Of a DNA stretch of 64,000 nucleotides, positions 426 through 39,447 are shown one piece after another. The notes below the pieces were generated by a model. It was not told the DNA's origin and searched no databases. It worked only from the letters and a program-made list of their open reading frames with translations. Location: the IMG/VR virus record IMGVR_UViG_3300044825_003843, positions 1 to 64,000 of that record; one strand, 5' to 3'. A program made the position numbers and the translations under genes. The DNA is from a virus. Taxonomy: Duplodnaviria > Heunggongvirae > Uroviricota > Caudoviricetes. Position 1 is the stretch's first letter; each line of letters begins with the position of its first letter.

Positions 426-1202
426 ATGAAGACAATTAGACAATCACTGACTGAAATAGTTAACTTTGATTTTGTTAATGCATCACAAAAAGAAATTGAA
501 AATATACTTCCGACCTTTGGAATGAACAATGAATACATTAGTGAAATACCTCCCATGTTCTCGAAATATATGGGATGGGGCATTAAATTTTGGCAATACC
601 CAAACCAACTTAGTAAATTACTTTGTCATTTGAAAGGAAAGAAAATTAATTCATACTTAGAAATTGGTGTAAGGTATGGTGGTACATTTGTTTTAATAAA
701 CGAATTACTTAAAAGATATAATAACTACGTGGAATCTCATTGTGTCGATGTTATTCCTGCTTCTGAAATATTACACACCTATCAACATGAATTTGCAAGA
801 GATAGGTTTTATTATCACCAAACCCCATCACACAGTTCTACTTTCTTTGATACACTTACTGGTGTTGACCAAATATCTGTCGCCATTACTACAAAAAAAA
901 TTGATTTAGTATTCATCGACGGATGCCACACCTATCCTTGTGTTAAACAAGATTATGTAACCGCACTTATCTTAGGTGCAAAATACATTATCTTTCACGA
1001 CATAAGTAACACTAACTCGGAAAGTACTAGATTGATTTGGAGTGAAGTCAAAAAAAATCACAAGAAGACCTATGAATTTATTGACCAATATGAAGGTATG
1101 GACGCTAATTACTTAGGTATTGGACTTGTAGAAGTTTCACCTGAGGATGCAGTATTTCCGATGTTCGAATCAAATTATCCAGGTGTCGAGTTGTCGTTGT
1201 AA
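426..1202 (+). CDS. class I SAM-dependent methyltransferase, CmcI/cephalosporin-hydroxylase-like (sugar O-methyltransferase family)
   Basis: WQYPNQLSKLL...YLEIGVRYGGTFVL (motif I) and DLVFIDGCH match CmcI-family signature (Q.P.....IIE.G...GGS ... LVFIDSDH). Confidence 0.6.
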   Translation: MKTIRQSLTEIVNFDFVNASQKEIENILPTFGMNNEYISEIPPMFSKYMGWGIKFWQYPNQLSKLLCHLKGKKINSYLEIGVRYGGTFVLINELLKRYNNYVESHCVDVIPASEILHTYQHEFARDRFYYHQTPSHSSTFFDTLTGVDQISVAITTKKIDLVFIDGCHTYPCVKQDYVTALILGAKYIIFHDISNTNSESTRLIWSEVKKNHKKTYEFIDQYEGMDANYLGIGLVEVSPEDAVFPMFESNYPGVELSL

Positions 1203-7186: not shown

Positions 7187-8275
7187 CTATTTTATCTTAT
7201 CCACTAATTTTAATGCAGAAGCAATAATTTGGTGCATATCGTAGTAAATATAATTTGCCAATCTACCTCCAAAGAAAATGTTTTTTTCTTTTTTTGATAA
7301 CTCGGAATATTTCTCATAGAGTGAGCTGTTTACTGAGTCTCTTATTGGATAGTATGGTTCATTATATCCTGTGTAGTTTTCTGGGTATTCATAACTCACA
7401 ATTGTACCTTTTTGTTGTTGGAAATCAAACCATTTGTGTTCTACTATTCTTGTGTAAGGGATGTCTTTGTCGGTATAGTTCATAACAGGCACACCTTGAA
7501 AGTTATCGTCCTCCAAATGTTTTTCTTCCCATCTTAAACTTCTGTATTCTAACTTTCCGAATCTGTAGTCGTAAAATCTATCAATTTCTCCTGTGAATAT
7601 TACTTTACTACATAGTGAATTATATTTCTCCCTACTTTCGAAATAATCGACCCCTAATTCAACATCAATCCCATGCAACATTTTTTCAAATATTTGGGTG
7701 TAACCACCTATTGGCATTCCAACGTATTTGTCATCGAAATAACTACTGTTCCATGTAAATCTTACAGGTAATCTTTTTATAATATATGAAGGTAACTCAT
7801 CACAAGACTTGTTCCATTGTTTTTCCGTATATCCCTGTATTAATATTCTATATATGTCTTCCCCAACTAATGATTTTGCTTGTTGTTCTAAATTGACAAT
7901 TTCCCCTTTGTATTTTTGATTTTCAATAACATTTCTCGCATCAATTTCGTTATTAACCCCCCATATTTGATTGAAGGTCCACAAATTGAACGGTAAGGAA
8001 TATATTTTGTCTTTATAGTTAGCTAAAACATTATGTGTATATTGTTTGAATTCCGCGAATTGATTTACATAGTCCCATAGGTATTTTTCATTGGTATGAA
8101 AAATATGAGCCCCATGTTTGTGAACATGAATTCCATTGATGTTTTCAGTATAACAATTACCTCCAATAACATTCCTCTTATCAATCACTAAACATTTATA
8201 TCCTAATTTAGTCAATTCATATGCACAAGTTGTGCCGAAAATTCCCGAACCCACAATAAGGAAATCATACATCAT
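7187..8275 (-). CDS. glf: UDP-galactopyranose mutase
   Basis: N-terminal FAD fold DFLIVGSGIFGTTCAYEL...VIDKRNVIGGNCYTE...GIHVHKHGAHIFHTN and near full-length colinearity with bacterial Glf (YTEKQW, RFTWNSSYFDDKYVGMPIGGYT, YTRIVEHKWF, YYPI). Confidence 0.93.
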   Translation of the reverse strand: MMYDFLIVGSGIFGTTCAYELTKLGYKCLVIDKRNVIGGNCYTENINGIHVHKHGAHIFHTNEKYLWDYVNQFAEFKQYTHNVLANYKDKIYSLPFNLWTFNQIWGVNNEIDARNVIENQKYKGEIVNLEQQAKSLVGEDIYRILIQGYTEKQWNKSCDELPSYIIKRLPVRFTWNSSYFDDKYVGMPIGGYTQIFEKMLHGIDVELGVDYFESREKYNSLCSKVIFTGEIDRFYDYRFGKLEYRSLRWEEKHLEDDNFQGVPVMNYTDKDIPYTRIVEHKWFDFQQQKGTIVSYEYPENYTGYNEPYYPIRDSVNSSLYEKYSELSKKEKNIFFGGRLANYIYYDMHQIIASALKLVDKIK

Positions 8276-9438
8276 GAAAAACTAAAAGAAAAACTGTTTA
8301 AATTTATAGTCGGTCTTGATAATTTATTTGTATATGTTTCTTTTAAGGTATTTAACAAGGTACCAGTATTGTGATAAATTCTATCGTCAATCAAAAAACA
8401 AAGATTCGGGTATGGGTTCGGTCTATCAACAGAAGCCATAAATTCTACTAAGTTTAACGCTTCTTGATATCTACCTTGAGCGTCCAAAATTTCTACTTTG
8501 TGGAACAGGTGTTCATTTCTATTAGGACAAAAATCTTCAGCAAAATCAAAATATTTGAATGTTTTGTCTTTTTCACCCATGAATTCATATGCTTGTGCCA
8601 TCAAGATTAGTGCAAAATACGCCATTTCATTATTTGATGTTGCAATTGGGTTTTCAGGTGTCCATCCGTGAACTAACTCCAAATACCTTTCGAAATACCA
8701 TATACCCCTCCTCGCATACTCGTCCGAGTGTTGCTTACCAAAAGCTAATTCATCAGGTCTACCATAACAGTCAGTATAACTTTTTGCAATATACCATAAA
8801 TGATATAAATCATGTTTAACTTTATCACCAACAATGTTATCAATTTCCAATTCTAAAGCATCTCTCAGAAACTTTCTTGGAACGTGCCAAGTTTGCCCAT
8901 CTTGAGAAACCCTGTGTCTAAATGATTGAGGTAAAGTTACTCTTTGGAAGTTTTCACCAATATTGGGTAAATGAATAGTTTCATGTCTTTTATCTAATTG
9001 GAAAAACCAAGGTAATTTAGCGTTCCACATCCATGTTCTCATGTATCTTGTACCTCCATTCACAGCATTAACATTCCAACTCTCTACTTTGGTATCATCT
9101 AATATACTCCAATCAAAATCGTTATCAATCTCTAAAGTTTCGTCCGCATCCATTCTCAAAATCCAGTCACAACCATGGTCAGTTTGTAATGCAACTTGTA
9201 AAGTATGATTCCTATTCCAGCCAGGAAAGTTCCATTCAATAAAATAAGTAAACCCTTTGATTCCTTTTTGTTTAAAAAAGGTGTCAATTATTTCTCTCGT
9301 GTTGTCTCCTTTACCATTACATTGTATTACATAATAATCGATATATGGTGCCACAGACTCCAACATTCTTGTTATTGTCGGGGCTTCATCACCGACCATC
9401 GCATTCAAACAAATTTTAGTTTTTTTATTCATATACAT
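8272..9438 (-). CDS. glycosyltransferase (GT-A/GT2-like N-terminal domain) with C-terminal TPR-like region
   Basis: ICLNAMVGDEAPTITRMLESV...YYVIQCNGKGDNTREII and RMDADE (DxD-like); helical repeat C-terminus. Confidence 0.5.
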   Translation of the reverse strand: MYMNKKTKICLNAMVGDEAPTITRMLESVAPYIDYYVIQCNGKGDNTREIIDTFFKQKGIKGFTYFIEWNFPGWNRNHTLQVALQTDHGCDWILRMDADETLEIDNDFDWSILDDTKVESWNVNAVNGGTRYMRTWMWNAKLPWFFQLDKRHETIHLPNIGENFQRVTLPQSFRHRVSQDGQTWHVPRKFLRDALELEIDNIVGDKVKHDLYHLWYIAKSYTDCYGRPDELAFGKQHSDEYARRGIWYFERYLELVHGWTPENPIATSNNEMAYFALILMAQAYEFMGEKDKTFKYFDFAEDFCPNRNEHLFHKVEILDAQGRYQEALNLVEFMASVDRPNPYPNLCFLIDDRIYHNTGTLLNTLKETYTNKLSRPTINLNSFSFSFS

Positions 9439-10672
9439 AATTCATTTTTTGTTCTTCATCATAAAACTTTCTTATGGAAACACTATTTTGAAATTTTTGA
9501 GAGTGTCCTTCTTCTTCTATCCAATTCCAATCAAAAAATCCTAAGTAATTAATTCTTTCATGAATTGCTAAATCATAGTAATCTCTTATTAATCTTGCTC
9601 TTCGATTGATATCCTGAGCGTTGTTGTCTGTTGTAGTGTCTCTACTACTATATTGAAAATATAAAACTTTTTTCACATGTATCATCCTTGTATTCAAAAA
9701 AGTCCTGATGAGTATTTCCAAATCATCTGCTACAGGTGTATTTTTATTGTGTCCTCCGATTTCATGATACAGATTTCTTTCCCACATTCTTACGTGGTTG
9801 GGCATACTAATGTTGAATCTTATAGACAAAGGGTTGATATCAGGATATCTGTGTGCTAATATTTCATTTCCATCAACAGTTTCCCATTCATGTCCAGCAT
9901 AACCAAAATCGAAAAAGTTATCATGTCTTGCATACCAATTACCTGTCCAATCGTGGTCATAATATTTAAACTCACCTGTTTCATAGAACTCACAACAATC
10001 TGAATATAAAAATCCCGCGTCAGGAAATCGTAGAATAGCATCGTCTGCAACCGCCAAACAATTTGTGGTAAGACAATCGTCATGGTCAAGTTCTATTAAC
10101 CAATCACCATCACACAACATTGCCGCTCTATGTTTTGCCAAACCAACATTCCCACCCGTTATTGGATTTAGTTTGTATATTTTAACACGGTAATCTAACG
10201 ACTCTATGTCTTTTAGAATTTTGAAGGTTTCTTCGTTTGGTGAGTCATCAACAACAACCCATTGCCAATTCTTAAGTGTTTGATTTTTTAAACTTTCATA
10301 CGTTCTATAAATTCTTTCACCCGTATTATACGTGGGGGTAAAAATTGAGAACCTTGGTCTTATAACCTCACAGGATTTAAACACGGTTTGACAAACAATA
10401 TCATTAGCCAAAACACTATCAGGTAATTGTTGTTGATAGTATCTATAAATCCTAAGTAATCTGTAATTGTTTATTGGAATATCCTGACCAAACGAGATAA
10501 TTAAGTCAGGTTTATACTTTGTGAAATCAAGTTCCATGTTACCATCATAAGTAAGTGAATAAACTTCAACACTTTCATGTAACCCTTCCTCCCAATATAC
10601 ATCAGAAGTCAATGTGTGGTGACCAATTCGGTCCCAACCATATACAATAGCCGTAGGTTTTTTTGTTTTCAT
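9425..10672 (-). CDS. family 2 glycosyltransferase
   Basis: FSIFTPTYNTGERIYRTYESLKNQTLKNWQWVVVDDSPNE ... IELDHDD (GT2 DxD motifs). Confidence 0.7.
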   Translation of the reverse strand: MKTKKPTAIVYGWDRIGHHTLTSDVYWEEGLHESVEVYSLTYDGNMELDFTKYKPDLIISFGQDIPINNYRLLRIYRYYQQQLPDSVLANDIVCQTVFKSCEVIRPRFSIFTPTYNTGERIYRTYESLKNQTLKNWQWVVVDDSPNEETFKILKDIESLDYRVKIYKLNPITGGNVGLAKHRAAMLCDGDWLIELDHDDCLTTNCLAVADDAILRFPDAGFLYSDCCEFYETGEFKYYDHDWTGNWYARHDNFFDFGYAGHEWETVDGNEILAHRYPDINPLSIRFNISMPNHVRMWERNLYHEIGGHNKNTPVADDLEILIRTFLNTRMIHVKKVLYFQYSSRDTTTDNNAQDINRRARLIRDYYDLAIHERINYLGFFDWNWIEEEGHSQKFQNSVSIRKFYDEEQKMNYVYE

Positions 10673-14204: not shown

Positions 14205-15050
14205 ATGAAAAATACAATCAAGAAAATTTGTTTAACATTGTTAGAGGATTGTCCTGAATCCCTCAATGGAATTTATTTGGAAGTGAAAAAACAACTTAAA
14301 TCACAACCTAATTATTTCTCGAGATTTTCTACTGCTGAAAAGTTTGAAATCGTTTACGGTATTTTTTCTCTCAAACAAACAGGACGTTTTGATTTGGCTG
14401 AACAAATTTTACCAAATATCAAGTTAGTTTCAATCTTCAATTTTTTATCAGATGATTTTGCAGAAATCGATTGTCCAAAGTGTGAAGGAGGTGAAAACCG
14501 ATGCAAGGAATGTAACATGTTCGGTGTAGTCAAATGTGATGATTGTGATGGTGAGGGTAGCCAATTTTGTTACAAATGCTATGGGACAGGTGAATACGGA
14601 AATGCCGATTGTGATAATTGCAGAGGAACTGGTCAAATTAGATGTAAGGTGTGTAATGGAGATTCAATGTTAACTTGTCCTGAATGTGGTGGTGACAAAG
14701 TTTTAACCTGTAACGAATGTGGTGGACAAGGAATGTTAGAATCTGAACAAGTGAACTTTAACCTATACGATTATATAATTTACGATAAAAATATATTACG
14801 ATATCTGTTCGATAGAGCCGAGTTGTTCAAACCTATCGGAGAAAATTCGAGCTTTTCTGATTCAATATCTTCGAATGAGAATATACTTCATTTAGGGTTA
14901 AGGTTTGATACCTTTGAACCAAAATCATTTGTTCAAGAAAAAGATTATTGTTATTTCATAGGTTCTATTAACGACGAAGAAAAAATAAATTGGAATATTT
15001 CTCCATCACCAATAGTCTCGACATTACCTCACAAGTATGTAAAAAAATAA
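14205..15050 (+). CDS. paralogous CxxCxGxG zinc-finger repeat protein
   Basis: DCPKCEGGENRCKECNMFGVVKCDDCDGEGSQFCYKCYGTGEYGNADCDNCRGTGQIRCKVCNGDSMLTCPECGGDKVLTCNECGGQG; shares flanking domains with 12615..13529. Confidence 0.65.
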   Translation: MKNTIKKICLTLLEDCPESLNGIYLEVKKQLKSQPNYFSRFSTAEKFEIVYGIFSLKQTGRFDLAEQILPNIKLVSIFNFLSDDFAEIDCPKCEGGENRCKECNMFGVVKCDDCDGEGSQFCYKCYGTGEYGNADCDNCRGTGQIRCKVCNGDSMLTCPECGGDKVLTCNECGGQGMLESEQVNFNLYDYIIYDKNILRYLFDRAELFKPIGENSSFSDSISSNENILHLGLRFDTFEPKSFVQEKDYCYFIGSINDEEKINWNISPSPIVSTLPHKYVKK

Positions 15051-15052
15051 AA

Positions 15053-15072
15053 AGAGAGACCGTAGTCTCTCT
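15053..15072. terminator. bidirectional terminator hairpin between convergent genes
   Basis: agagagaccgtagtctctct perfect 8-bp stem, A-run upstream and T-rich downstream. Confidence 0.5.
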
Positions 15073-15116
15073 TTATTGGGACTGCCCGATAAGGGACAAT
15101 CGCTCCACCACCAAGT

Positions 15117-15395
15117 TTAACTTGGAAAAATCAACTCGTTTATGATTCTTTCTGTCTCTTGAGCAGATACCCAAGCCATCACATCATCTTTTAGGTCAGG
15201 AAAATATTTCTTGGTTACAAATTCTTTTGTCTGTTTGTCTATGAGAGCAATTTCAAAATCATTCTCGAAATCACCATATAAACCTGGTCTACCACCTACA
15301 ATAGAAATCATAAATGAGTCTGACTCGATTATTGTTTGTTTTGCATCATCGGGTCTTGTCGTTGCGAGAGATACTACGTCTTGAATCGTTATCAT
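15117..15395 (-). CDS. hypothetical protein
   Basis: 92-aa ORF. Confidence 0.4.
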   Translation of the reverse strand: MITIQDVVSLATTRPDDAKQTIIESDSFMISIVGGRPGLYGDFENDFEIALIDKQTKEFVTKKYFPDLKDDVMAWVSAQETERIINELIFPS

Positions 15396-20806: not shown

Positions 20807-20829
20807 CAATTAGTTAAAAAAACTTTGAG

Positions 20830-21780
20830 AATACAAGTTCTATTTGAGAATCTTTAGAAGGATTATGGTTTCCCTCCGTTTCCACTTCCTTTTGAGAAGT
20901 AATCCTCAGTGACGATTAATTAGGTTAATCAAACCTTGAGTTGTCAGATACTCTCTTGATACTTGCTACTCCTCGATGATGCCTCACCAATACTTCCTTG
21001 CGAGAATAGAGAACTTTTTCAAAAATCGTGTCGGGTTTGGGACCCTTCACGGCCGTGAACTTCTCACGACTATGTAGTCACCTTTCACTGACAACTGACG
21101 GACACTTTTCCGTTTGTAATTATTATTGTTAATAACATTTAACAAATGAATTGGTTTGTGGATTTGGAAAGTAGCGGTCCGTCAACCTGCTTCCCCATCT
21201 TTTGAACGAGGAAATACTGAACTACTCTCTGAGACATCCCTGCCTCCATACTTCAAGTTTACTTCATAACTCATGCCTTGGTAGGCTAAGGTTAAGGAGA
21301 ACAACAGCACCACCTGTACGAACTCATACCTTTCGGTTTTAAGTCAACTCTGATATTGAATCACGCAATTGTATAGTTGGATGACCATACTTCTTGCAGG
21401 AGTTCTACGGGTTATTCTTATCGGTGTTCCCACCTCAACCAAACGACCCACATCGCTTGGTCATCATTCCATTTCGCCTACAGTGTCACCCTCAGCTACT
21501 CAGGGACAATGATATCCCGCTTGTCTACTCAAGCTCAACAGAGGACACCCCTATCGAGCCGCAACCTACTTCAACCGAGGTAGGTCACTTTATACTGCTT
21601 TCACAGTTTATTTTATGGACTATAGACCGCCCAATATCTTGAATCAAAGAACTATCAAGTTTGAAGGAAAAAGGTATTTTTACGACCTGAAACCTTTCAG
21701 GAACCTTTACAACCCGTTTCCTTCAATTGTTCTACAAAACTAAGAAGGGTTTTTGATACTTCCAAATTTTATTAGAACTT
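20830..21780 (-). ncRNA. candidate large structured non-coding RNA (ORF-free, GC-elevated block downstream of tRNA); strand uncertain
   Basis: about 1 kb with stops in all six frames, markedly higher GC than flanks, many local helices (e.g. TTCACGGCCGTGAA at 21046..21059); no known ncRNA family recognised by eye. Confidence 0.3.
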
Positions 21781-21788
21781 TTTTTTGT

Positions 21789-21860
21789 TGCGTGAGTAAG
21801 AATCGAACTTACGACCTAAAGGTTATGAGCCTTCCGAGCTACCGCTGCTCTATCACGCGA
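21789..21860 (-). tRNA. tRNA-Met (anticodon CAT), initiator-like
   Basis: 72-nt cloverleaf CGCGTGA-TA-GAGC-AGCGGTA-GCTC-G-GAAGG-CTCATAA-CCTTT-AGGTC-GTAAG-TTCGATT-CTTAC-TCACGCA-A; C1:A72 mismatch and A11:U24 typical of bacterial initiator tRNA. Confidence 0.8.
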
Positions 21861-22166: not shown

Positions 22167-22589
22167 TTATTTTCCCAAAATAATTTGAAGTAATTTGTAT
22201 AAATGTGTTCCTGTCGAAAGTTCGTCCATTTGTTCTGCAGTAAAATATTTACATTCAGAATGTTCTTCACCATCCGAAGCATTTTCCAAATCAGGATTTA
22301 TTTCTTGGTCGGTGTTCAGAACGTATGTGTACATTCTCCCCTTAACTTTTTTACCGTCTCTAGTATGTCTTGGTAGAATACCTGTGAAAGTTAATTCTTT
22401 ATCAGAAATATCCAAATTAGTTTCCTCAAAGAATTCTCGCTTAGCACCTTCAAGAGTATCTTCCTCTTTTTCTAATTTGCCTGCTGGTATAGACCACATA
22501 CCAGGGTATGAGCCTTTACTATTTCTCTTACATAGTAAACATTTCTCCTTATGTTTTACTATTATTCCTACATATGTTTGTTGTTCCAT
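22167..22589 (-). CDS. Nudix hydrolase
   Basis: Nudix box GKLEKEEDTLEGAKREFFEETNL (Gx5Ex7REUxEExGU). Confidence 0.8.
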   Translation of the reverse strand: MEQQTYVGIIVKHKEKCLLCKRNSKGSYPGMWSIPAGKLEKEEDTLEGAKREFFEETNLDISDKELTFTGILPRHTRDGKKVKGRMYTYVLNTDQEINPDLENASDGEEHSECKYFTAEQMDELSTGTHLYKLLQIILGK

Positions 22590-22604
22590 CGTATTTATAT
22601 ATAT

Positions 22605-22952
22605 ATGAAAGTAAAAATAAATGAAAATATCTTCAAGGTCAAAACTTTAATTGATGAAAATTCACAAACCCTTGGAATGCAGAATAAAAGTTTTGATAAT
22701 ACTTTCGATGGGTTGCTTTTTCTGATGGGTGGAAAAGAACAATGTTTTTGGATGAAAGACTGTATTATACCCTTGGATATAATAATGATTAAAAATAACG
22801 TTATAGTTAATATTCACCACGACTGTCCTCCATGTAAAGGTGATGACTGTCCTTCTTACTGTGGTAAAGGTAATATTGTTTTAGAACTTGAGGGTGGTAC
22901 TTGTGAAGAGGTAGGTATTGAACCAGGTGATTCAATAGAATATATTTTCTAG
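22605..22952 (+). CDS. DUF192 family protein
   Basis: GLLFLMGGKEQCFWMKDCIIPLDIIMI...VLELEGGTCEEVGIEPGDSI fits DUF192/COG1430; start moved to MKVKINE (ATG 22605) to avoid overlap with divergent gene. Confidence 0.55.
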   Translation: MKVKINENIFKVKTLIDENSQTLGMQNKSFDNTFDGLLFLMGGKEQCFWMKDCIIPLDIIMIKNNVIVNIHHDCPPCKGDDCPSYCGKGNIVLELEGGTCEEVGIEPGDSIEYIF

Positions 22953-23506
22953 TTTGACTTCCAAACTTTTTCTTCTACACCAATAACAAATCCAACGTAT
23001 CTTGAAAGAACAAATAGATAGTCACTTAATCTATTCAGGTAAATTAAAATTTCGTTAGGAACTGATTCCAAAACACAAAGTCTTTCTGCTCTTCTACAGA
23101 CAGTTCTACATACGTGAGCAGTAGAAACATATATGTGACCACCAGGTAGTATAAAGTTTTTCAATTCAGGAAGAACATTATCCATTTTGTCAATCCAATT
23201 TTCTAAAGATTTCACATCTTCTGAATCAACTGATGATAATTCGAAACCTAACTTAGCATTTGGGTCTTTAGAAACTACAGAACCTATTTTGAATAGGTTA
23301 TTTTGAATGATATTCAATTGCAGTTGTTGTTCCATAAATTTAGACTTATCTGAAAATAAATGGTCAGAGAGTAACCCAATAAATGAGTTCAATTCGTCTA
23401 TGGTTCCGTATGCTTCTATTCTTAAATTGTTTTTTGGGACTTTTGTTCCACCTAATAAAGAAGTATACCCTTTGTCTCCTGTCTTTGTGTATACTTTTTT
23501 ACTCAT
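22949..23506 (-). CDS. ATP:cob(I)alamin adenosyltransferase, PduO-type
   Basis: VYTKTGDKGYTSLLGGTKVPKNNLRIEAYGTIDELNSFIGL matches PduO/MMAB N-terminus (YTKTGDKGETSL...R.EAYGT.DELNS.IG). Confidence 0.8.
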   Translation of the reverse strand: MSKKVYTKTGDKGYTSLLGGTKVPKNNLRIEAYGTIDELNSFIGLLSDHLFSDKSKFMEQQLQLNIIQNNLFKIGSVVSKDPNAKLGFELSSVDSEDVKSLENWIDKMDNVLPELKNFILPGGHIYVSTAHVCRTVCRRAERLCVLESVPNEILIYLNRLSDYLFVLSRYVGFVIGVEEKVWKSN

Positions 23507-23833: not shown

Positions 23834-24205
23834 TTAGTGCTTAAGAGTTAACAAGTATTTCAATTTATTTGTCATACCTAAAATTTCATCCCTAAGGTTG
23901 AGTAGGTCAGTATCATATCTAGAATCTAGATGGTCACTTAAACCCACCAAAAATTCAGTTATGCCATCTAAAAAATTTTGAATAGTCAACTTGGAGATGT
24001 CTTGAAACATGATTGAAAATTCAGAATCAAATTGATATCTACCGTACTTACCCATGGTTATTTCTGCAAATTCGTCTAAAAAATCACCCAATTGTTCGTA
24101 AGTCTCACCATATGCACGATGTTTAGCATCACCATATGTTTGCCAATGTAAAAATCTGAATTGATTTTGGATTTGTACTAATTTTAAAATAATTTCTTCC
24201 TTCAT
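23834..24205 (-). CDS. hypothetical protein
   Basis: 123-aa ORF. Confidence 0.4.
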   Translation of the reverse strand: MKEEIILKLVQIQNQFRFLHWQTYGDAKHRAYGETYEQLGDFLDEFAEITMGKYGRYQFDSEFSIMFQDISKLTIQNFLDGITEFLVGLSDHLDSRYDTDLLNLRDEILGMTNKLKYLLTLKH

Positions 24206-25351: not shown

Positions 25352-25388
25352 TGAAATACTTTTAAAATAAATATCAACAAATAAAAAA

Positions 25389-25404
25389 AGGGTCTATTGA
25401 CCCT
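25389..25404 (-). terminator. rho-independent terminator overlapping stop codon of MTase gene
   Basis: minus-strand AGGGTCAATAGACCCT followed by TTTTTTTATTT. Confidence 0.55.
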
Positions 25405-26263
25405 CTTTTAAATCCAATTCCAATTGTTTCTTCTTATCTATGAAACCCTGAACTCTTTTCTTAGCTATTTCACAATAGTTTTCACTCAGTTCAATCCCTA
25501 CCCATCTTCTGTCTAAGATTTCCGCAGCAACCAAACTAGTTCCACTACCAGCAAACGGGTCAAGTATCAAATCATTTTTATATGAGAGTATTTTGATTGC
25601 TTTCGTTGGAATATCCATTGAGAATGTTGCCTTGGTAAGTGACTTTGTATCTGCGAAGTAATCCCACTGACCGAAGACCAACTCCATAAATTCTTTCTTA
25701 CTTTCGTCCGTATAGACCATTTTTTTCTTTGAGGTGCCATCCTCATTCTCAATTAAGGTTTCTTCTCCTTTCCATTGTGGTTCACCTTTAACCTTCTTAA
25801 TATGATTGTTTTTGTAAGCTAAAATTATACACTCTTTGGGATTATAAATGTAAGGAGATGATGGCGACATCCACGACCCCCATGCCGTAGTCTTGCTTCT
25901 ATGTGGAGAATTTTCTTCTAAATCCACAATTCCGAAGAATTTGAAACCAATACTTTGCATGATTGACCATAGTTCTGCCGCCATAAAGATTCGACCCCCT
26001 TTCGATTGTCTGTTAATCTCATAGGGTATATTGAGAGCTATTCTCCCATCGTTTTTTAATACTTTATAGGCTTCTGTTAACCAACTCTTTGAAAACTTTT
26101 TATATTCTTCAAAATCAATATCATCATCATGTGTGTCGTAATCAATTCCAACTCCATAGGGTGGTGAGGTAACAATTAAATCAATAGAATTCTCAGGAAT
26201 GTCTTTCATAACTTCAATACAATCCCCATTCAGTATTTTACCAACGTATTTTTCCATAAACAA
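25394..26263 (-). CDS. DNA methyltransferase, beta-class (SPPY)
   Basis: N-terminal IVTSPPYGVGIDYD and C-terminal DPFAGSGTSLVAA. Confidence 0.8.
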   Translation of the reverse strand: MFMEKYVGKILNGDCIEVMKDIPENSIDLIVTSPPYGVGIDYDTHDDDIDFEEYKKFSKSWLTEAYKVLKNDGRIALNIPYEINRQSKGGRIFMAAELWSIMQSIGFKFFGIVDLEENSPHRSKTTAWGSWMSPSSPYIYNPKECIILAYKNNHIKKVKGEPQWKGEETLIENEDGTSKKKMVYTDESKKEFMELVFGQWDYFADTKSLTKATFSMDIPTKAIKILSYKNDLILDPFAGSGTSLVAAEILDRRWVGIELSENYCEIAKKRVQGFIDKKKQLELDLKEGQ

Positions 26264-26282: not shown

Positions 26283-26687
26283 CTATAACAAACCTTCGTT
26301 TCGAAGTTCTTGTCTGATTTTTGTTGCTGATATCTCTTTGATGTCGTCAGGTGGAATGTGTTCTATGATATCATATCCAACACCCCTTCCAAAATTAATT
26401 GATTCGATATCAGGTATAATAATAACTTTTACCCTTTCATCACCTAAAAGTTGCCATAGGTCTCGTTTAATTTTTATTTCCACTTCTTGTGCGGTGAAAG
26501 GATTTTTTTCATCGGGTTTTATGTCCCTGACACAAATCAAAACATTTTTTCCTTCTTCGATACATTGATTTACTAACCATTTGTGACCATCATGAAAAGG
26601 TTGGAATCGTCCCACAATCATGGAGTATTGTTTACCTCCTGTGTTTTTGAGTTTCGGGTCACCTTCTACGTGAATTTTTTTCATCAC
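26283..26687 (-). CDS. nicotinamide-nucleotide adenylyltransferase, archaeal NadM-type (HxGH nucleotidyltransferase)
   Basis: VGRFQPFHDGH, ...KNPFTAQE..., ISATKIRQEL parallel archaeal NMNAT IGRFQPFHKGH / ENPFTAGER / ISGTEIRRRM. Confidence 0.65.
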   Translation of the reverse strand: MMKKIHVEGDPKLKNTGGKQYSMIVGRFQPFHDGHKWLVNQCIEEGKNVLICVRDIKPDEKNPFTAQEVEIKIKRDLWQLLGDERVKVIIIPDIESINFGRGVGYDIIEHIPPDDIKEISATKIRQELRNEGLL

Positions 26688-26690
26688 TTA

Positions 26691-27125
26691 TTACATTATT
26701 CGAGTTAATATATACGACACACATTCTTCAGGTGTGATATCATCCGTACATAAACTTAAATAGTTCTCTGATGGTTCTTCATATTCTTTAACAAAGTAAT
26801 TCTCCCTTCCTCTTATTTGTGTTGTATGAACGTAAACCTCCAAAATATCTTTACCCATCTTATCTTTGAACTTATCTCTTTGGTCTTTGTAAGGAGAAAC
26901 CAATGAGACTACAGGATGAAACCCTTTTCTATGAAGAAACTCTGCAATATGTTGTGCCAGTTCAATATTCTTTCTCCTACCAACTTCACTATAGTCCTTG
27001 TTTTGGAAGATTTCTCTGAGGTCGTCTCCATCTATATTGATGAATGTACCCGTACTATCTGAAACAAGTTCATTAGCGATTGTAGATTTTCCACTACCTG
27101 GTTGTCCTGTTAACCAAATTATCAT
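26691..27125 (-). CDS. APS-kinase-like P-loop kinase
   Basis: IIWLTGQPGSGKSTIA...IDGDDLRE...RRKNIELAQHIAEFLHRKGFHPVVSLVSPYKDQRDKF...ILEVYVHT colinear with CysC (VLWFTGLSGSGKSTVA...LDGDNVR...ENIRRVGEVA...LTAFISP...FIEVFVDT). Confidence 0.7.
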   Translation of the reverse strand: MIIWLTGQPGSGKSTIANELVSDSTGTFINIDGDDLREIFQNKDYSEVGRRKNIELAQHIAEFLHRKGFHPVVSLVSPYKDQRDKFKDKMGKDILEVYVHTTQIRGRENYFVKEYEEPSENYLSLCTDDITPEECVSYILTRIM

Positions 27126-27304
27126 TCCTCGTCCTCCATACTTTCTATAGACATCTGTTTAATGTAGGCTATTGCAATCCAAGCCATACATGATAATTGC
27201 CAAATAAATGGTTCACCTTCGTAAAAATCTATTAGGGAACTTATTCCTGCAGAAATGAATCCCAAAAACATGAATAATTTATCAAAAATTCTATAATTTT
27301 TCAT
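27122..27304 (-). CDS. small membrane protein
   Basis: 60 aa, two hydrophobic helices. Confidence 0.35.
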   Translation of the reverse strand: MKNYRIFDKLFMFLGFISAGISSLIDFYEGEPFIWQLSCMAWIAIAYIKQMSIESMEDEE

Positions 27305-27780: not shown

Positions 27781-28560
27781 TTAAAATGTGTAATAAGGCA
27801 TGTTTTTTTTCTTTATGATAGGACAATAATATTTTTTCCATTCAGGGTACCAATATATTAAACCATCCGTTCTTTGTCTGTCCGTTGAATCTATAAAATC
27901 CAAATCAATCGGCTGAAACTCAACCTCTCCCCACTTAGTTATTATTTCAAAATCCTCGTCCGTCATATGGAGTCCTTTTTCATCATCTCTCGGATTATTG
28001 AAGTATGAAAAGATTCCATTCTCTTTGAGAATACTACGAACTTTCATCAAAAAGTCACCTCCGTCGTCTTCCCAAGTGTCAAAATATATTCCATCAAACA
28101 TGGGTAGATATTTGAAATACCACTGCCAATCACCAAACAATATCTTTACTTTAGGTTTCAAGTGCCAACCATCATCGAACATTTTTTTATACACGTCTTT
28201 GTGTGGTTCTATAATCCAATGTTCAGTGATATTTTGTTCTTGGATGTAACTATCAATGATACCCATCCCAAAACCAACGTTCAAAACTTTCCCACCATTT
28301 CTACAAACTAACTCTGCAGACTTTTTCATTATGGGTCTTTCCCACTCCATCATGACTGCGTTACCATATTCATCTAACAACCTACCATCAGATGAATATG
28401 TTAACTTTTGGTCTTTGTATGGTTTCACATCATTCATTTGGAATTTTACTGTGGTCGAAAAAGAAACTATCCAAACTTTTTTTGTAATACTCTTGAGAAG
28501 TCGTGTCTTCAACTGAAGGAGTAGGTAATTCTTTCTCTCCTTTGTTAGTAAGTCCAACAA
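27781..28560 (-). CDS. guanidinoacetate N-methyltransferase-like (GAMT/RMT2 family) SAM-dependent methyltransferase
   Basis: MEWERPIMKKSAELVCRNGGKVLNVGFGMGIIDSYIQEQNITEHWIIEPHKDVYKKM...FDGIYFDTW colinear with GAMT (MERWETPYMHALA...[39 protein letters not shown]...FDGILYDTY). Confidence 0.75.
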   Translation of the reverse strand: MLDLLTKERKNYLLLQLKTRLLKSITKKVWIVSFSTTVKFQMNDVKPYKDQKLTYSSDGRLLDEYGNAVMMEWERPIMKKSAELVCRNGGKVLNVGFGMGIIDSYIQEQNITEHWIIEPHKDVYKKMFDDGWHLKPKVKILFGDWQWYFKYLPMFDGIYFDTWEDDGGDFLMKVRSILKENGIFSYFNNPRDDEKGLHMTDEDFEIITKWGEVEFQPIDLDFIDSTDRQRTDGLIYWYPEWKKYYCPIIKKKNMPYYTF

Positions 28561-32033: not shown

Positions 32034-33068
32034 ATGTCAACTTGGAAAGATTATATTGAAGAATTCAACTCAGGAGATACAGACTTTTTAGGAAACTTTG
32101 GAGATGATATTGGTCTGTTCGTAGATTTAATAACTCAGAAAGGATTACTTAAATACTTGAACGTTAATGCAAGTATGGAACCTGAAGTTGAGAATAAAGT
32201 TGTGTTGGCCTTTTATGAACATCACATGCCAAGTTATATAGAATTTTTACAAGAGAATTTGAGTGATGTAGAATTTGAAAATGGAGTGTTTTATTTTGTC
32301 GGTGACCCTTCAGATTTATCTACTCTTTTTGATGAAGGTAGAAATACCTTGCAGAAAAAAACTGTAGAAAAAATTTTGAGTGGTGAAGGTTTAGACTTTG
32401 AATTTTTTGACTACACAACAGACAACGTTTATTCCGACGTTGTTGAAGAATTGAATATTGTAAATTTGCAATCCTTATATGAAGCCGTTCTTTACTTTTC
32501 CAAAGACGTTCAAATAGAACCAAGTACAGAACTTTTAGAATTGATTGCTGAAGAACAAGGTCACCCTGATTTTGTAATCATAGACAAAAACAATGTTGAA
32601 AGAATTGTCGATGACAGAGAAACTTTCGAATCACTTCTTAATGATGAATTATCTGATTTGAAGGGTAATCTCATAAACCTTCATCATTGGGCTTACAATT
32701 CAGCATATGAAGAAGAAGTTTACGAGGAAGTTTGGAATCAGCTTGATAAGTTTTTTGTCACTGACCAAAAGAAATGGGTTTCAGTACCAATGTATACAGG
32801 ACCTGCTGGTTCACAAAAGATTGCAAGTACTATAGAAAGAATGAAATTACCAATAAGAAATTTACCCGAAATAATAAATGATTATCTAAGATGGAATGTG
32901 GAAGCTACATATCCAGAATCAGTTAGGTATTATGGTAACTACTCAGCAATATTGACATGGGTTCTCGACGAAAACCGTGATTATTCAAAGGTATATCCCC
33001 CTGATTTTCCTGATAGTTCTAAAGTTGATAAAAACATCAACGAAATGTTCAACGATTATATATACTAA
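32034..33068 (+). CDS. hypothetical acidic protein
   Basis: 344-aa ORF, only long plus-strand gene near the fibre module. Confidence 0.5.
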
Positions 33069-35152
33069 CCATTAAGTTTGTCTTCTATCTTTTTTAACTT
33101 ATCCTCTACCTGAGTCAATAATCTATATTGTTCTTTAATTGCTTGAGTGCAAATTGCAACAATCTCAGAGTATTTTACTTTATATCCATTTTTTTCGTCA
33201 CCATATACAACCTGTGGTAAAACCTCTTGAAGTTCTTGTGCAATGAAACCTATATCATCATCGTCTTTCTTGTGAATATGATATTTTTCTGGGTTCTTCC
33301 ACTTAAATCTAACACCCCTCAATTTTTGGATTATACTAACAGCATCCTCTATTACTTTGATATTTTTCTTCATCCTTGAATCAGACGGTGGTCCGATTGC
33401 ACCTGTTCTACCTGTCTGTCCAATATTACCTTGAGCACCTTGAGCTCCTTGTGGACCAGGTCCTCCACTTTGTCCTTGAGCTCCTTGGGCACCTGTTGCT
33501 CCTTGTGCACCTTGAGGACCCGCGGGATTACCCGCAAGGTTATTACCTTGGTCACCAAAATTTCCTTGAGCACCCTGAGTACCTGGTGGGCCAGGAGTTG
33601 GTTGACCTTGAGCACCTTGAAATCCTTGACCACCAACAGGTCCTTGAGCACCTTGAGCACCGGGGGGACCTGTATTCCCTTGTGGTCCAGGTGCTCCTAT
33701 AGGACCTGGTGCACCTGGCGGACTAAGTCCTGGTGCTCCTTGAGCCCCTTGAGCACCTTTCGAACCCTGACTTCCTGCGACTCCAGGAGTTCCTTGTGCA
33801 CCTTGTGGTCCTTGTGGTCCGAGAGCTCCAGGATTACCTGTAGGTCCTTGAGCACCTTGTGCTCCTTGCCCTCCTTGAGCTCCTTGAGGTCCCTGAGCTC
33901 CTTGAGCTCCCTGAGCACCCTGAGCACCCTGAGGTCCTAAAGCACCTTGTGCACCTTGACCACCCCGTGGGCCTTGAGGACCCGCAGTCAAAGATTGAGC
34001 TCCTTGAGCACCTTGACCTCCTTGAGCACCAACAGCTCCTTGTGCTCCCTGCGCTCCCTGAGCTCCCTGTCCTCCTTGAGCACCTTGAGCGCCTTGACCT
34101 CCTTGAGCACCTTGACCTCCTTGAGCACCTTGGCCTCCTTGAGCACCTTGACCTCCTTGAGGACCAACAGCTCCCTGCGCTCCTTGTATTCCTTGAGCAC
34201 CTTGACCACCTTGAGCTCCTTGAGCACCTTGACCTCCTTGAGCACCTTGTATTCCTTGAGCACCTTGACCTCCTTGAGCGCCTTGAGCACCTTGACCTCC
34301 TTGAGCACCTTGAGCACCTTGACCTCCCTGAGCACCTTGAGCACCCTGTCCTCCTTGAGCACCCTGTCCTCCTTGAGCACCCTGTCCTCCCTGTGCTCCA
34401 ATGTTTGCCCCTGGGGCACCTGTATTTCCTTGAGCACCTTGAGCTCCTTGAGCACCTTGAGCTCCTGTTGCTCCTTGAGCACCTTGAGCACCCTGTCCTC
34501 CTTGAGCACCCTGTCCTCCTTGGGCACCTTGTCCTCCTTGGGCACCAACGTTACCCACAGCACCCTGAGCACCTTGACCTCCCTGAGCACCTTGAGCACC
34601 CTGTCCTCCTTGAGCACCCTGTCCTCCTTGAGCACCCTGTCCTCCTTGAGCACCCTGTCCTCCTTGAGCACCTTGAGCTCCTGTTGCTCCTTGAGCACCT
34701 TGTCCTCCTTGAGCACCTTGTCCTCCTTGAGCACCAACGTTACCCGCAACACCCTGAGCACCTTGACCTCCCTGAGCACCTTGAGCACCTTGTGCACCTT
34801 GAGCACCTTGACCTCCCTGAGCACCTTGAGCACCTTGTGCTCCTTGGGGCCCTTGTGTACCTGAAGAACCTTTTGCACCTTGAGCTCCTTGGGGTCCTTG
34901 TGGTTGTCTGTTACCCTGCCATGCCGTCGTATTAATCAAAGTTCCAGCATCATTAATAAGAGTATTGGTTAATCGTAAATCTGCATTTGTAACTCTGAAA
35001 TTAGGATAAGTATTATCCAAGGACAGATAAGTAGTAACCCCTCTTCTAAATTGTAAACTAGCTGAGGTTACAACCAAATCAGTTTGGGTCGTTGCAGAGT
35101 CATAAAAGGAAATCGTCCCCGTACCAGGCGTTATCTTAATATCTTCAGGCAA
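33065..35152 (-). CDS. collagen-like triple-helix repeat tail fibre protein with C-terminal intramolecular chaperone (peptidase S74-like) domain
   Basis: about 480 aa of G-X-Y repeats ([10 protein letters not shown]...) and C-terminal [32 protein letters not shown] (SDxRxK self-cleavage motif). Confidence 0.85.
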
Positions 35153-38100
35153 TCAATTTTGTTTTTAAATATTTTATTTTTTCATAAATAGAATTTATCC
35201 TTTTTTGTTGTTCTTGAATTGAACCGATACAAAGAGCAACAATTAAACCATATTCCAATCTTTTATATCCATCGTCCTCCGTCCACACAACTTGTGGTAA
35301 TACCATTTCTACCTCCTGAGCAATATATCCAACAGAATCTTTTTCATAATAGTGTTCTTGAGCTGGGTTGAGATAGTTTTGAACTTTATCATTTTTTTCA
35401 TCCCAAGTAAAGTAAACACTTTGAAGTTTCAAAATTGTATCAATACTGTTTTTCAAAGTCTGAACTTTTGACTTCAATCTTCTATCTGAAGTAGGTCCAG
35501 TTGGTCCTTGCGGTCCTTGAGAACCTTGAACCCCTTGAGCACCTTGAGCTCCCTGTGGTCCCTGTGGACCAGCACCTGCAGTTGCAGGTGCACCAACACT
35601 ACCTTGAGCTCCTTGTGCACCTTGAGCCCCTTGCGGGGCACTTAACCCTTGGGTTCCTTGAGCACCTTGAGCACCCTGAGGTCCTCGAGGTCCAGTTGGA
35701 GAGGCACCCTGAGCACCTTGTGCACCCTGAACCGTACCTTGCGGTCCAGCAGCTCCCGAGTTACCTGTCACACCTTGAGCTCCTTGTGGACCTTGTGGAC
35801 CTTGGGCACCTTGAACACCTTGAACACCTTGTGGTCCCTGAGCACCTTGCCCACCTTGGGCACCTTGGGCACCTTGGGCACCTTGTGTAGTATTTGTAGT
35901 TCCTGGTGCGCCAGGATTACCGACCACAGCACTTGCACTTCCTTGGGCTCCTTGAGGTCCTTTCGCACCTTGCGCTCCTGTGTTAGCACCTGACGCACCT
36001 GTGTTACCTGTCCCTCCAGGGACACCTTGAGCTCCGGTCGCACCCACGGGTCCTTGAAGTCCTTGAGCTCCTTGGTTTCCTTGGAATCCTTGTGGTCCTT
36101 GTGGTCCAGGTGCTCCAGGCGTTGTGTTGGCAGCACCTTGAGCACCTTGTCCTCCTTGCGCCCCTTGAGCACCCTGAGCACCTGTATTTGCACCCTGAGC
36201 TCCTTGAGCACCTGTCGCTCCTTGCACCCCTTGAGCACCCTGAGCACCTGTATTTGCACCCTGAGCTCCTTGAGCACCTTGAGCTCCTTGTTGTCCAACT
36301 GCGCCGGTATTTAGACCCTGAGCTCCCTGAGCGCCTGTTGCTCCTTGTATCCCTAATGCACCCTGAGCACCTGTATTTGCCCCTTGAGCACCTTGTGCAC
36401 CTTGTCCTCCCTGAGCACCTTGTGCACCTTGTCCACCCTGAGCTCCTGTATTCGCACCTTGAGCACCTTGTGCACCTTGTGCACCTTGTGCACCTTGTAC
36501 ACCTTGTGCACCTGTATTTACACCTTGAGCTCCTTGAGCCCCTGTTGCTCCTTGAGCTCCTTGTCCACCCTGAGCACCTGTATTTGCCCCTTGAGCACCT
36601 TGTGCACCTTGTCCTCCCTGAGCGCCTTGTGCTCCCTGAGCACCTGTATTTGCTCCCTGAGCTCCCTGAGCACCTTGTCCTCCCTGAGTGCCTTGTGCTC
36701 CCTGAGCACCTGTATTTGCTCCCTGAGCACCTTGAGCTCCTTGAGCACCTTGAGCTCCTTGAGCACCTTGAGCTCCTGTGTTTGCTCCCTGAGCACCTTG
36801 AGCTCCCTGAGCACCTTGTCCTCCCTGAGCACCTTGAGCACCTGTATTTGCTCCCTGAGCACCTTGTCCTCCCTGAGCACCTTGTCCTCCCTGAGCACCT
36901 TGAGCTCCTGTGTTTGCTCCCTGAGCACCTTGTGCTCCTTGCACACCAATACTTCCTTGAGCACCTTGGGCTCCCTGCACACCAATACTTCCTTGAGCAC
37001 CTTGAGGTCCTTGTGACCCCTGAGCACCTTGAGCTCCTTGTCCTCCTTGGAACCCAATAATATTTGTTGTTGGTCCTACCCAAATGGCAGAACTATTAAC
37101 AAATAAAGTATTTCCAACATACAATCCACCTGAATTTAGGCTAGCCCCTGATGATAATATATTTTGTGGCCCTATTTGAAATCCCGTGGAAACTGTTGAA
37201 GATGAGAGTTGTAAAAACAAATTTTCAACATTCAACTGTAACTTGTTTGTACCATCATCGAATATGATGAATGGTTTCAGAACTGAAGCATTACCTTGAG
37301 GATATATTATTATATTAGCCATTTATTTTACTTTCTAATTCTTTTACTTCGATAAGAAGTTTTTCTATTTCTCTTTGATGCTCTTTTATCGCTTCAACCA
37401 CAACCGCGTTCAATTTGGTGTATTCCACGTAATAATATCCAGACTTATTGACACCAACGGCCTCAGGGAAATATTTCTTAAGGTCTTGGGCTATCAATCC
37501 GATAGACTGTAGTTTACCTACCTGAGAAAGATAATCATATTTGTTAGGGTCTATTTTATCATTCCATTCAAATTGAATTACTTTCAGTTTATTAATACTC
37601 TCTAACACATTTTCAAGGTTAGATACTTTCTTTTTCAATCTTTTATCTGAGAAACCTGGTGGACCTGGGAAACCAGGGTCCCCTTTAGCACCTTGAGCCC
37701 CTTGAGCACCCGTATTTCCTGTCGGTCCTCCACTTGCAGGACCTTGAGCTCCTTGTGCACCTTGAGCTCCGGTGTCCCCTTGAGCACCAAATTTTGCACC
37801 TGTAGCACCTTGAGCACCTTGTGCACCTTGAAACCCTGTTGGTCCTTGAGGTCCGAGAGTTCCTGGAGCACCTTGAGCCCCATTGGGTCCGAATGCACCT
37901 GGTCCTCCTTGAAAACCTATATTGCCTGGCGCACCTGGCCTTCCGACGAATCCTTGTGCTCCTTGTAGTCCTTGTATTCCTGTAGCACCTTGAGCCCCTT
38001 GAGCACCTTGACCTCCTTGGGCCCCTTGAGCACCTGTAGGACCATTAGGTCCAGGTGGACCTTGGACTCCTTGTGCTCCTGCAGCTCCCTGAGCACCTTG

Positions 38101-39130
38101 TGGACCTTGTTGTCCCTGAGCACCTTGCGGTCCCAAAGGGCCTTGAGCACCTTGTGGACCTGTGGGTCCTGCGGCTCCTTGGAAATTTTGAGGTCCTTTC
38201 GCACCTTGAGCACCTTGTGAACCTTGAGCACCTTGAATACCCGGAGGTCCAATAGGTCCTATAGGTCCTTGAGCACCTTGAGCACCTTGAGCACCTTGAG
38301 CACCTTGTCCACCTTGAGCACCTTGTGGACCTTTGGAACCCTGAGCTCCCTGAGCTCCTTGTGCTCCCTGAGCTCCTTGTGCTCCTTGTGGACCTTTGGA
38401 ACCCTGAGCTCCCTGAGCACCTTGTGGCCCTTGAGCTCCTTGTGGTCCTGATGGTCCTTTGGCCCCTTGAGCCCCTTGAGCTCCTTGACCTCCTTGAGCT
38501 CCTTGTGGACCCCGTGGACCTTGAGCACCCACAGAACCCTGTGCACCTGTACTTCCCACAGCACCTTGAGCTCCTTGAGGTCCCCGTGGACCTTGAGCAC
38601 CTTGACCACCTTGAGCACCCTGCCCTCCTTGAGCTCCTTGTGGACCTCTTGGTCCTTGAGCACCTTGTCCTCCTTGAGCTCCTTGCGGACCTTGAGCTCC
38701 TTGAGGTCCCCGTGGACCTTGAGCACCTTGAGCACCTTGGCCACCTTGAGCACCTTGAGCTCCTTGTGGACCTCTTGGTCCTTGAGCACCTTGTCCACCT
38801 TGAGCTCCTTGTCCACCTTGGGCTCCTTGAGGTCCGGCAAAACCTATATTCCCTTGAGCACCTTGCCCACCTTGAGCACCTTGAGCACCTTGTGGCCCTT
38901 TCGAACCCTGTGCACCCTGAGCTCCCTGAGCACCCTGACCTCCTTGAGCACCTTGTGGCCCTTTCGAACCCTGTGCACCCTGAGCTCCCTGAGCACCCTG
39001 ACCTCCTTGAGCACCTTGTGGCCCTTTCGAACCCTGTGCACCTTGAGCACCTTGTCCTCCCTGAGCACCTTGAGCGCCTTGTCCTCCCTGAGCACCTTGA
39101 GCACCGATATTTCCTATAAATCCCACATTT
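33400..39130. repeat. highly repetitive 9-nt periodic DNA (GXY-encoding ccttgagca/ccttgtgca units) spanning three genes
   Basis: visible tandem near-identical 9/18/27-nt units; all six frames open. Confidence 0.9.
35145..37322 (-). CDS. collagen-like tail fibre protein with C-terminal S74-like chaperone domain (paralog 2)
   Basis: [20 protein letters not shown] repeats; C-terminal [30 protein letters not shown]; overlaps neighbours by 8 nt. Confidence 0.85.
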
Positions 39131-39447
39131 CCTGGCGCACCTTGAGCCCCTTGTCCTCCCGCAATATTTGTGGTTGGTCCGACCCAATTCAAAGTATTAT
39201 TTAATATCTGTATTCCACCAACACTCATGAAATTTCTAATATTCAAAGTGTATCCTGAAATATTAGTGTTCGAAGGATTAACTGATAATATATTACTTTG
39301 AGTTGCAGAACTAAAAGTCACTACAGCACCCGATAAAACTTTCAATGAAATGGGTACATCACCGACATTATTTATAAAGTCGATAAAAGGAATTCTGTCA
39401 GGTTGTTGAACCAACCGACTCGGAACTATTTTAATGTTTAGACCCAT
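37315..39447 (-). CDS. collagen-like tail fibre protein with C-terminal S74-like chaperone domain (paralog 3)
   Basis: [16 protein letters not shown] repeats; C-terminal [30 protein letters not shown]. Confidence 0.85.

Follow-up and report, generated by a model that had tools for sequence, protein, structure and literature searches.

A phage gene pair encoding a short-lid APS kinase and an NMNAT-derived nucleotidyltransferase as a candidate sulfate-activation module

We analyzed a 64-kb window (positions 1 to 64,000 of IMG/VR record IMGVR_UViG_3300044825_003843) out of a phage genome of at least 112 kb. The subject of this study is a pair of adjacent genes in this window, one for a kinase of the adenylylsulfate (APS) kinase type with a short lid and one for a nucleotidyltransferase (NT) derived from nicotinamide mononucleotide (NMN) adenylyltransferase (NMNAT). 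The pair and the features that belong to it are as follows.

26691..27125, minus strand: short-lid APS kinase, 144 aa, first gene of the pair
26283..26684, minus strand: NMNAT-derived NT, 133 aa, second gene of the pair, candidate sulfate adenylyltransferase
26685..26693, minus strand: junction TAA TAA GTG, with kinase and NT in one reading frame and a double stop between them
25384..25409, minus strand: terminator-like hairpin followed by a T-run, 3′ of the DNA methylase gene downstream of NT, found in a consensus scan

Both open reading frames (ORFs) described in the initial annotation exist, as do the three motifs it quoted from NT (GRFQPFHDGH at residues 25-34, NPFTAQE at 61-67 and ISATKIRQEL at 118-127). 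The annotation placed the kinase gene downstream of NT; both genes are on the minus strand, and thus the kinase gene is the upstream, first gene and NT the second. The in-frame translation continues after TAA TAA with GTG ATG, so that NT has either 134 aa from the GTG (26687) or 133 aa from the ATG (26684); nearly every listed database relative has 133 aa. Stop-codon recoding or readthrough at the junction was rejected on account of the double TAA and the long standard-code ORFs across the window. As a pattern match only, the hairpin at 25384..25409 likely ends the minus-strand transcription unit that holds the pair. A 60-aa hydrophobic ORF (27122..27304) that overlaps the kinase start was rejected as part of the module, being kept in only 8 related loci and not DUF2061-like.

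NT had initially been identified as a NadM-type NMNAT. Archaeal/NadM NMNATs are indeed its nearest relatives in profile searches, and the glycerol-3-phosphate and CTP transferases are less close. However, NT is part of a large and distinct family which, as judged from the alignments, lacks the NMNAT segment after the ‘DIE’ motif. NT scores 41.8, 40 and 37.5 bits against NF002243, TIGR01527 and the NadM equivalogs, for which the cut-offs are 127, 181.2 and 409 bits, respectively, and the match is confined to ~75 residues of the N-terminal part (residues 22-96). No curated NCBIfam model reaches its cut-off for NT, Pfam returns the generic CTP_transf_like family alone, and a fold search of BFVD with NT gave weak generic cytidylyltransferase matches only. 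The 34-residue NMNAT segment that starts from ‘DIE’ (residues 76-109 of MJ0541) is represented by 9 positions in the NT family profile. The nicotinamide contacts N84 and W87 of Methanobacterium thermautotrophicus NMNAT presumably lie inside this segment, and the position equivalent to the Asn is variable across the NT family (N, H, Y, A, C, T, E or K). The match of true phage NadM/Nudix proteins to NT is limited to residues 19-93 (~1e-5), whereas the kinase-fused family described below matches residues 23-128 at 5e-19. Members of the NT family carry public names such as ‘cytidyltransferase-like’, ‘NMN adenylyltransferase’ and ‘hypothetical protein’, and the fusions are named ‘adenylyl-sulfate kinase’ or ‘kinase’.

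The key residues of NT are G25-R26...H31-x-G33-H34, V-R53-D, N61-P62-F-T, G99-R100-G-V-G-Y104 and I-S119-A-T121-K-I-R124. In an alignment of 46 divergent family members, G25, R26, H31, G33, H34, R53 and P62 are invariant or nearly so, and the same is true of G99, R100, V102, G103, Y104, S119, T121 and R124. R53 stands in place of the Ser of the NMNAT ‘GSAQ’ motif, and R100 sits in a new ‘GRxVGY’ loop. ATP sulfurylases have the same fold as NT, and the corresponding motif of the human enzyme is HNGH. Homology and fold identify NT as a nucleotidyltransferase of the HxGH type that acts on the alpha-phosphate and whose catalytic core is intact.

The kinase matches Pfam APS_kinase (PF01583) at 5.1e-18 with 66 bits (gathering cut-off 21.1). 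This bears out the colinearity with CysC that had been proposed for it; owing to the truncated lid, the match spans no more than profile positions 4-110 of 152. Against the NCBIfam apsK equivalog the kinase scores 69.2 bits (cut-off 138.7). Its closest solved relatives are archaeal APS kinases (2.9e-13), and the top five structural matches of its fold are all APS kinases. The kinase has the P-loop GQPGSGKS, D32-G33-D34 followed by R37, R50, N53, S77-P78-Y79 and R105. The P-loop, DGD, R37, R50, N53 and SPY are invariant or nearly so across both short-lid and canonical relatives, and R105 is also conserved with canonical APS kinases. In this enzyme family, Mg-ATP and APS are bound by the P-loop, the DGD motif with its Arg and the downstream R, N and S-P-[YF] residues. 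Human PAPSS loses its APS-kinase activity when either Asp of DGD is mutated (PMC8528679). The lid of the window kinase reads ‘IRGRENYFVK’ and is 14 residues shorter than the canonical RDPKGLYKKAR.GEI.NFTGI. Homology and fold thus make a strong case for a predicted 3′-phosphotransferase of the APS-kinase type.

An exhaustive search of 50%-identity cluster representatives for the NT family recovered 1233 clusters at E ≤ 0.001. Among the best 150 of the 1233 representatives, 36 are fused to an APS kinase, 26 in the order kinase-NT and 10 in the order NT-kinase, and several of the fused kinase domains are full canonical APS kinases (170-231 bits). Other fusion partners of NT are DUF6717, a GT-A-like domain and, in one member, a DHHA1 domain; DHH/DHHA1 enzymes include phosphatases of 3′-phosphoadenosine 5′-phosphate (pAp). 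A kinase homolog was found upstream of NT in all 80 IMG/VR loci examined, and it is directly adjacent in 75 of them. Of 37 loci from a genome scan, 31 likewise have the kinase directly upstream of NT, and two others have it no more than 6 kb upstream. The order NT then kinase is found in other viral contigs. The closest proteins of isolated phages in tblastn searches are kinase-NT fusions, namely Salvo gp32 of a Xylella phage and DLP6 gp227 of a Stenotrophomonas phage. Fusion in both orders, together with the strict adjacency, is strong evidence that the kinase and NT carry out consecutive steps. NT proteins of phages and of Marinimicrobia (SAR406) share 54-62% identity, which suggests that phages of marine or fresh waters and these bacteria have recently exchanged the module and may be a clue to the host.

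The 37 loci of the genome scan are mostly from Marinimicrobia, on contigs of up to 0.97 Mb; some of those from metagenome-assembled genomes (MAGs) of Bacteroidota may be phage contigs binned with their host. A Sulfotransfer_5 gene is located within 8 kb of NT in 18 of the 37. Among 10 Marinimicrobia capsule clusters, APS_kinase is present in all 10 and Sulfotransfer_5 in nine, and the Sat and CysDN families are absent from the 25 commonest families of these clusters. In two of the loci (L023 and L027) the pair lies inside a capsule/exopolysaccharide cluster with a Wza-type exporter, Wzi, a flippase/GT1 and an epimerase, and a Sulfotransfer_5 gene (1e-48) adjoins the pair or is one gene off. 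The same slot is occupied by a short-lid kinase in L023 and by a canonical kinase (225 bits) in L027. By analogy, this shared slot beside NT and Sulfotransfer_5 gives indirect support to phosphorylation of the 3′-OH of APS by the short-lid kinase as well. In an Acidobacteriota MAG (L124), an NT-APSK fusion adjoins an ABC exporter and sulfotransferase-glycosyltransferase fusions.

Sulfotransferases also occur beside the module in viruses. A phage contig with terminase and portal genes (L127) has a fused APSK-NT followed directly by a Sulfotransfer_2 gene; a viral scan seeded with this sulfotransferase found zero relatives. A sulfotransferase-like gene directly precedes the fused NT-APSK in a virus-like contig (L125), and the gene order in L132 is NT, kinase and sulfotransferase-like gene. 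Across 13 diverse viral loci, three neighboring genes are matched by sulfotransferase families and three by DUF2061.

These results suggest that the two genes constitute a portable sulfate-activation module making 3′-phosphoadenylylsulfate (PAPS), the universal sulfate donor, with NT giving APS and the kinase giving PAPS; we put the probability of this at about 0.6. In the first step, sulfate would attack the alpha-phosphate of ATP in NT to yield APS and pyrophosphate, a job that is done elsewhere by Sat or CysDN. In the second step, the short-lid kinase would phosphorylate the 3′-OH of APS, and by forming PAPS it would draw the unfavorable first step forward. Taking sulfate instead of the NMN phosphate as acceptor would be a small chemical change, in keeping with the missing base-binding segment and the added arginines R53 and R100. 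To judge from the relatives, the PAPS probably feeds a sulfotransferase, host-encoded or encoded elsewhere in the phage genome, that acts on a glycan or another acceptor, and the glycan genes of the window could be the source of such an acceptor; alternatively, it might be used in host sulfur assimilation. The initial annotation had ended on 3′-phosphorylation of an adenylylated intermediate or sulfation-type chemistry as an alternative to its own proposal, and it is this alternative that the evidence favors. We are confident that the module serves PAPS and sulfation chemistry in some form. The balance tips only slightly toward NT itself being the sulfate adenylyltransferase, a prediction from its sequence. 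The most far-reaching version could go either way: that NT is a hitherto unrecognized third class of ATP sulfurylase of ~110 residues that arose from NMNAT by losing the nicotinamide-binding segment and acquiring anion-binding arginines, that with the short-lid kinase it forms the smallest known PAPS synthase, and that phages sulfate cell-surface or virion glycans with it, using phage or host sulfotransferases.

Several observations weigh against a PAPS module. The nearest relatives of NT, by sequence and by fold, are archaeal/NadM NMNATs, and NT has no sequence-level match to Sat or CysD. Hosts that already make APS would need the kinase alone. The window itself has no sulfotransferase, CysH or other PAPS user in Pfam searches of its ~90 ORFs, including at relaxed E-values; a regular-expression search for the sulfotransferase 5′-PSB motif and phmmer with Sulfotransfer_5 found nothing in the window, nor did phmmer with CysD, CysN and three other sulfotransferases. 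The Campylobacter jejuni APS-kinase homolog Cj1415 acts on CDP-amidate, and if this is right, membership of the APS-kinase family does not by itself fix the substrate. Furthermore, the NT-APSK fusion of the Acidobacteriota locus L124 is accompanied by canonical cysD and cysN genes, and a second sulfurylase in the form of NT is not needed there. The NT of this locus (protein P0274, L124:7300-8259), which belongs to the sole NT-APSK fusion found beside cysD/cysN, has His for the near-invariant R100 (‘NYGHDVGY’). This is a single case, but it could mean that NT is under less constraint when CysDN is at hand.

The alternative that survives best, which we consider unlikely, is that the module makes a PAPS-like cofactor. 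NT would nucleotidylate another small anion (phosphoramidate-type, phosphonate or selenate) and the kinase would 3′-phosphorylate the product, or else NT would act in PAPS/pAp turnover. The present results are compatible with acceptors of NT other than sulfate, the CysDN genes beside the L124 fusion hint that NT can do more than replace a sulfurylase, and the short-lid kinase departs from canonical APS kinases in its lid. In C. jejuni, the synthesis of O-methyl-phosphoramidate uses a nucleotidyltransferase and Cj1415 to form 3′-phospho-CDP-amidate, which keeps a cofactor of this sort a rival to PAPS. However, unrelated phages carry the two genes as a self-contained unit that lacks further conserved partner enzymes, and its recurrent neighbors are genes of sulfotransferase families. 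Canonical APS kinases (225-231 bits) pair with the same NT, and short-lid and canonical kinases are interchangeable in one Marinimicrobia slot.

A second alternative reverses the order of the reactions. The P-loop kinase would phosphorylate a small alcohol or sugar, and NT would then make a nucleoside diphosphate-activated donor for phage glycosyltransferases, following the logic of HldE or of choline kinase/CCT. Such a scheme would suit the gene order of kinase before NT, the three to four family 2 glycosyltransferases (GT2) and the UDP-galactopyranose mutase in the window, and the location of relatives in polysaccharide clusters. We think it very improbable, given that the nucleotide-binding motifs of APS kinases are kept, that the five best structural matches are APS kinases, that the order NT before kinase is also common among fusions and separate genes, and that the recurring neighbors are sulfotransferases.

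We give still less credence to NT as a working NMNAT that rebuilds NAD+ against NAD-depleting defenses as a variant of NARP2 or NARP3, with the kinase supplying or modifying a nucleotide. The top sequence and fold matches of NT are NMNATs, JGI pipelines label some family members ‘nicotinamide mononucleotide adenylyltransferase’, and phage systems of a kinase plus NMNAT are known, for example NARP3 (PMC13464706). The Nudix gene that had been noted about 4 kb away is real and lies 3.7 kb from the pair; however, it is of a generic Nudix/MutT type, is separated by six genes and is not operonic with NT. Likewise, the NMNAT scores are far under the curated cut-offs, the 34-residue segment after ‘DIE’ is cut to 9 positions with a possible Asn substitute that is not conserved, and true phage NadM/Nudix proteins match NT more weakly and over a shorter stretch than the kinase-fused family does. 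The cellular context of the NT family is capsule sulfation and not NAD metabolism. The kinase is not of the NadR/RNK type and largely shows the canonical APS pocket and the sulfate context that the initial annotation had itself named as grounds for giving up its proposal. No Nampt, PRPP-synthetase-like (Adps), PnuC or NadR-type kinase gene was found among the ~90 ORFs of the window, which covers 64 kb out of at least 112 kb. The initial proposal of a NARP2-related NAD-reconstitution anti-defense module is therefore not supported: the NT family is separate from the NMNATs and linked to APS kinases, its relatives have sulfotransferase neighbors, and no NAD partner genes were found in the window.

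Least likely is that the kinase alone matters, as a plain cysC auxiliary metabolic gene of the kind commonly listed in virome surveys. NT would then be non-catalytic or regulatory, for which the APS kinase of Thiobacillus denitrificans with its inactive sulfurylase-like domain (PDB 3cr8) sets a precedent; the 46 divergent NT members show little or no variation in the catalytic HxGH, GR and ISxTxxR motifs, which argues for a conserved active site. A role like that of coenzyme A synthase (phosphopantetheine adenylyltransferase plus dephospho-coenzyme A kinase) and one as a polynucleotide kinase are both disfavored by the ranking of the kinase fold and the sulfotransferase context.

A small membrane protein of the DUF2061 family (~70-105 aa) is encoded just downstream of NT in many phage and MAG loci, at the following positions.

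L128:11034-11261
L016:8341-8547
L108:8733-8948
L118:10401-10616
L029:1564-1779
L040:8765-9082 (0.4 kb downstream)
L136:418-672
L137:6865-7077
L138:6874-7089

In L125 (9154-9999), DUF2061 is fused to a sulfotransferase-like domain. The kinase/NT module may have this DUF2061 protein as an additional, third component; the window does not encode it, and literature searches on DUF2061 and sulfate returned nothing relevant.

The window, an AT-rich fragment (GC ~32%) from the genome of a large uncultured phage, has genes for DUF3310, three DNA methylases, a sigma-70 factor, DnaJ, collagen-repeat tail fibers and a tRNA-Met. Megablast of the 12 kb around the pair against isolated phages gave zero matches, and the other window proteins have distant phage relatives or none in protein searches. 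The features outside the pair are listed below.

20822-21229, minus strand: GOLLD RNA (Rfam RF02032, 316.5 bits, E 9e-90, full model length)
21788-21859, minus strand: tRNA-Met, neighboring the GOLLD RNA
22167..22589: Nudix ORF (PF00293, 3.1e-19), top matches generic Nudix and MutT-type families
22551-22952, plus strand: DUF192 protein, between the Nudix gene and the pair
22949-23506, minus strand: PduO-type cob(I)alamin adenosyltransferase (1e-55), between the Nudix gene and the pair
23834-24205, minus strand: DUF5856 protein, between the Nudix gene and the pair
27781-28560, minus strand: 218-aa product matching PF27704 (guanidinoacetate N-methyltransferase-like), three genes upstream of the kinase
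33065-39447, minus strand: three tandem paralogous genes (695, 725 and 710 aa) with collagen triple-helix repeats and a C-terminal Peptidase_S74 chaperone domain
7187-10672 (minus strand), 57728-58660 (minus strand) and 426-1202 (plus strand): glycan-related set of UDP-galactopyranose mutase, three to four GT2 and Methyltransf_24

GOLLD is a large structured RNA named from lake- and Lactobacillales-derived sequences, and it partly explains the gene-poor stretch at 20.7-22.1 kb. The PduO-type adenosyltransferase suggests that the phage supports an adenosylcobalamin-dependent enzyme that the window does not encode. The position of the PF27704 gene is kept in a nearly identical contig (L003, 5592-6248), and a contig matching the window (L043) also encodes a pterin-4a-carbinolamine dehydratase (14854-15123). 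The three tandem paralogs share 56-59% mutual identity, have a GC content of 46-51% as compared with ~32% for the genome, and probably encode the tail fibers.

We then compared the pair with known systems. It resembles the bifunctional PAPS synthases (human PAPSS1, 1x6v; Aquifex aeolicus Sat/APSK, 2gks; the CysNC and NodQ types) in that an adenylyltransferase and an APS kinase are encoded together or fused, and in the association with sulfotransferases, which is present in relatives and not in the window. It differs from them in that NT is an NMNAT-derived domain of ~110 residues and not Sat (PF01747) or CysD/CysN, to neither of which it has a sequence match, that the kinase lid is 14 residues shorter and that the sulfurylase activity of NT is putative. 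As compared with archaeal/NadM NMNATs (MJ0541, 1f9a; M. thermautotrophicus, 1ej2; NadM, 2qjt and 2qjo), NT has the 9-position GRxVGY loop for MJ0541 residues 76-109 and an invariant Arg for the Ser of ‘GSAQ’, is under every curated cut-off, and is partnered by an APS kinase and sulfotransferases instead of Nampt or Nudix. NARP2 (Nampt and NMNAT) and NARP3, which consists of PnuC and a NadR-like NMNAT/NR kinase (PMC13464706), are likewise small phage modules with a transferase of the NMNAT superfamily, and NARP3 also has a P-loop kinase. In contrast to these, searches of the window turned up neither Nampt nor PnuC, the kinase is of the APS-kinase type, and NT is without the segment after ‘DIE’. 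The nearest counterpart among isolated phages is PHROG 10255 (‘kinase’), to which Salvo gp32 and DLP6 gp227 belong and which has the same two domains in a single polypeptide. The window kinase corresponds to positions 2-89 of its profile and the window NT to positions 134-228. The two differ in that the window domains are split by TAA TAA, and the fused proteins bear no functional annotation beyond ‘kinase’ or ‘hypothetical protein’. Searches of the literature for a novel or non-canonical ATP sulfurylase of this sort came up empty, and so did those on a phage-encoded sulfotransferase, phage PAPS or phage-driven sulfation.

We rate the finding as a probable PAPS-synthesis module with an unorthodox first enzyme. 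It carries a caution, namely that NMNAT-like motifs in a phage do not alone indicate NAD reconstitution. If NT is a sulfate adenylyltransferase, it would be a third and very small solution to sulfate activation that is missed by current annotation, and counts of viral ‘cysC’ auxiliary genes and of viral ‘NMNAT’ anti-defense candidates would change. The pair could then also serve as a compact two-gene PAPS generator for biotechnology. It would further point to sulfation driven by phages, sometimes with phage-encoded sulfotransferases. If NT does represent a third class of ATP sulfurylase, the module would be carried by hundreds of uncultured phages as well as by marine Marinimicrobia.

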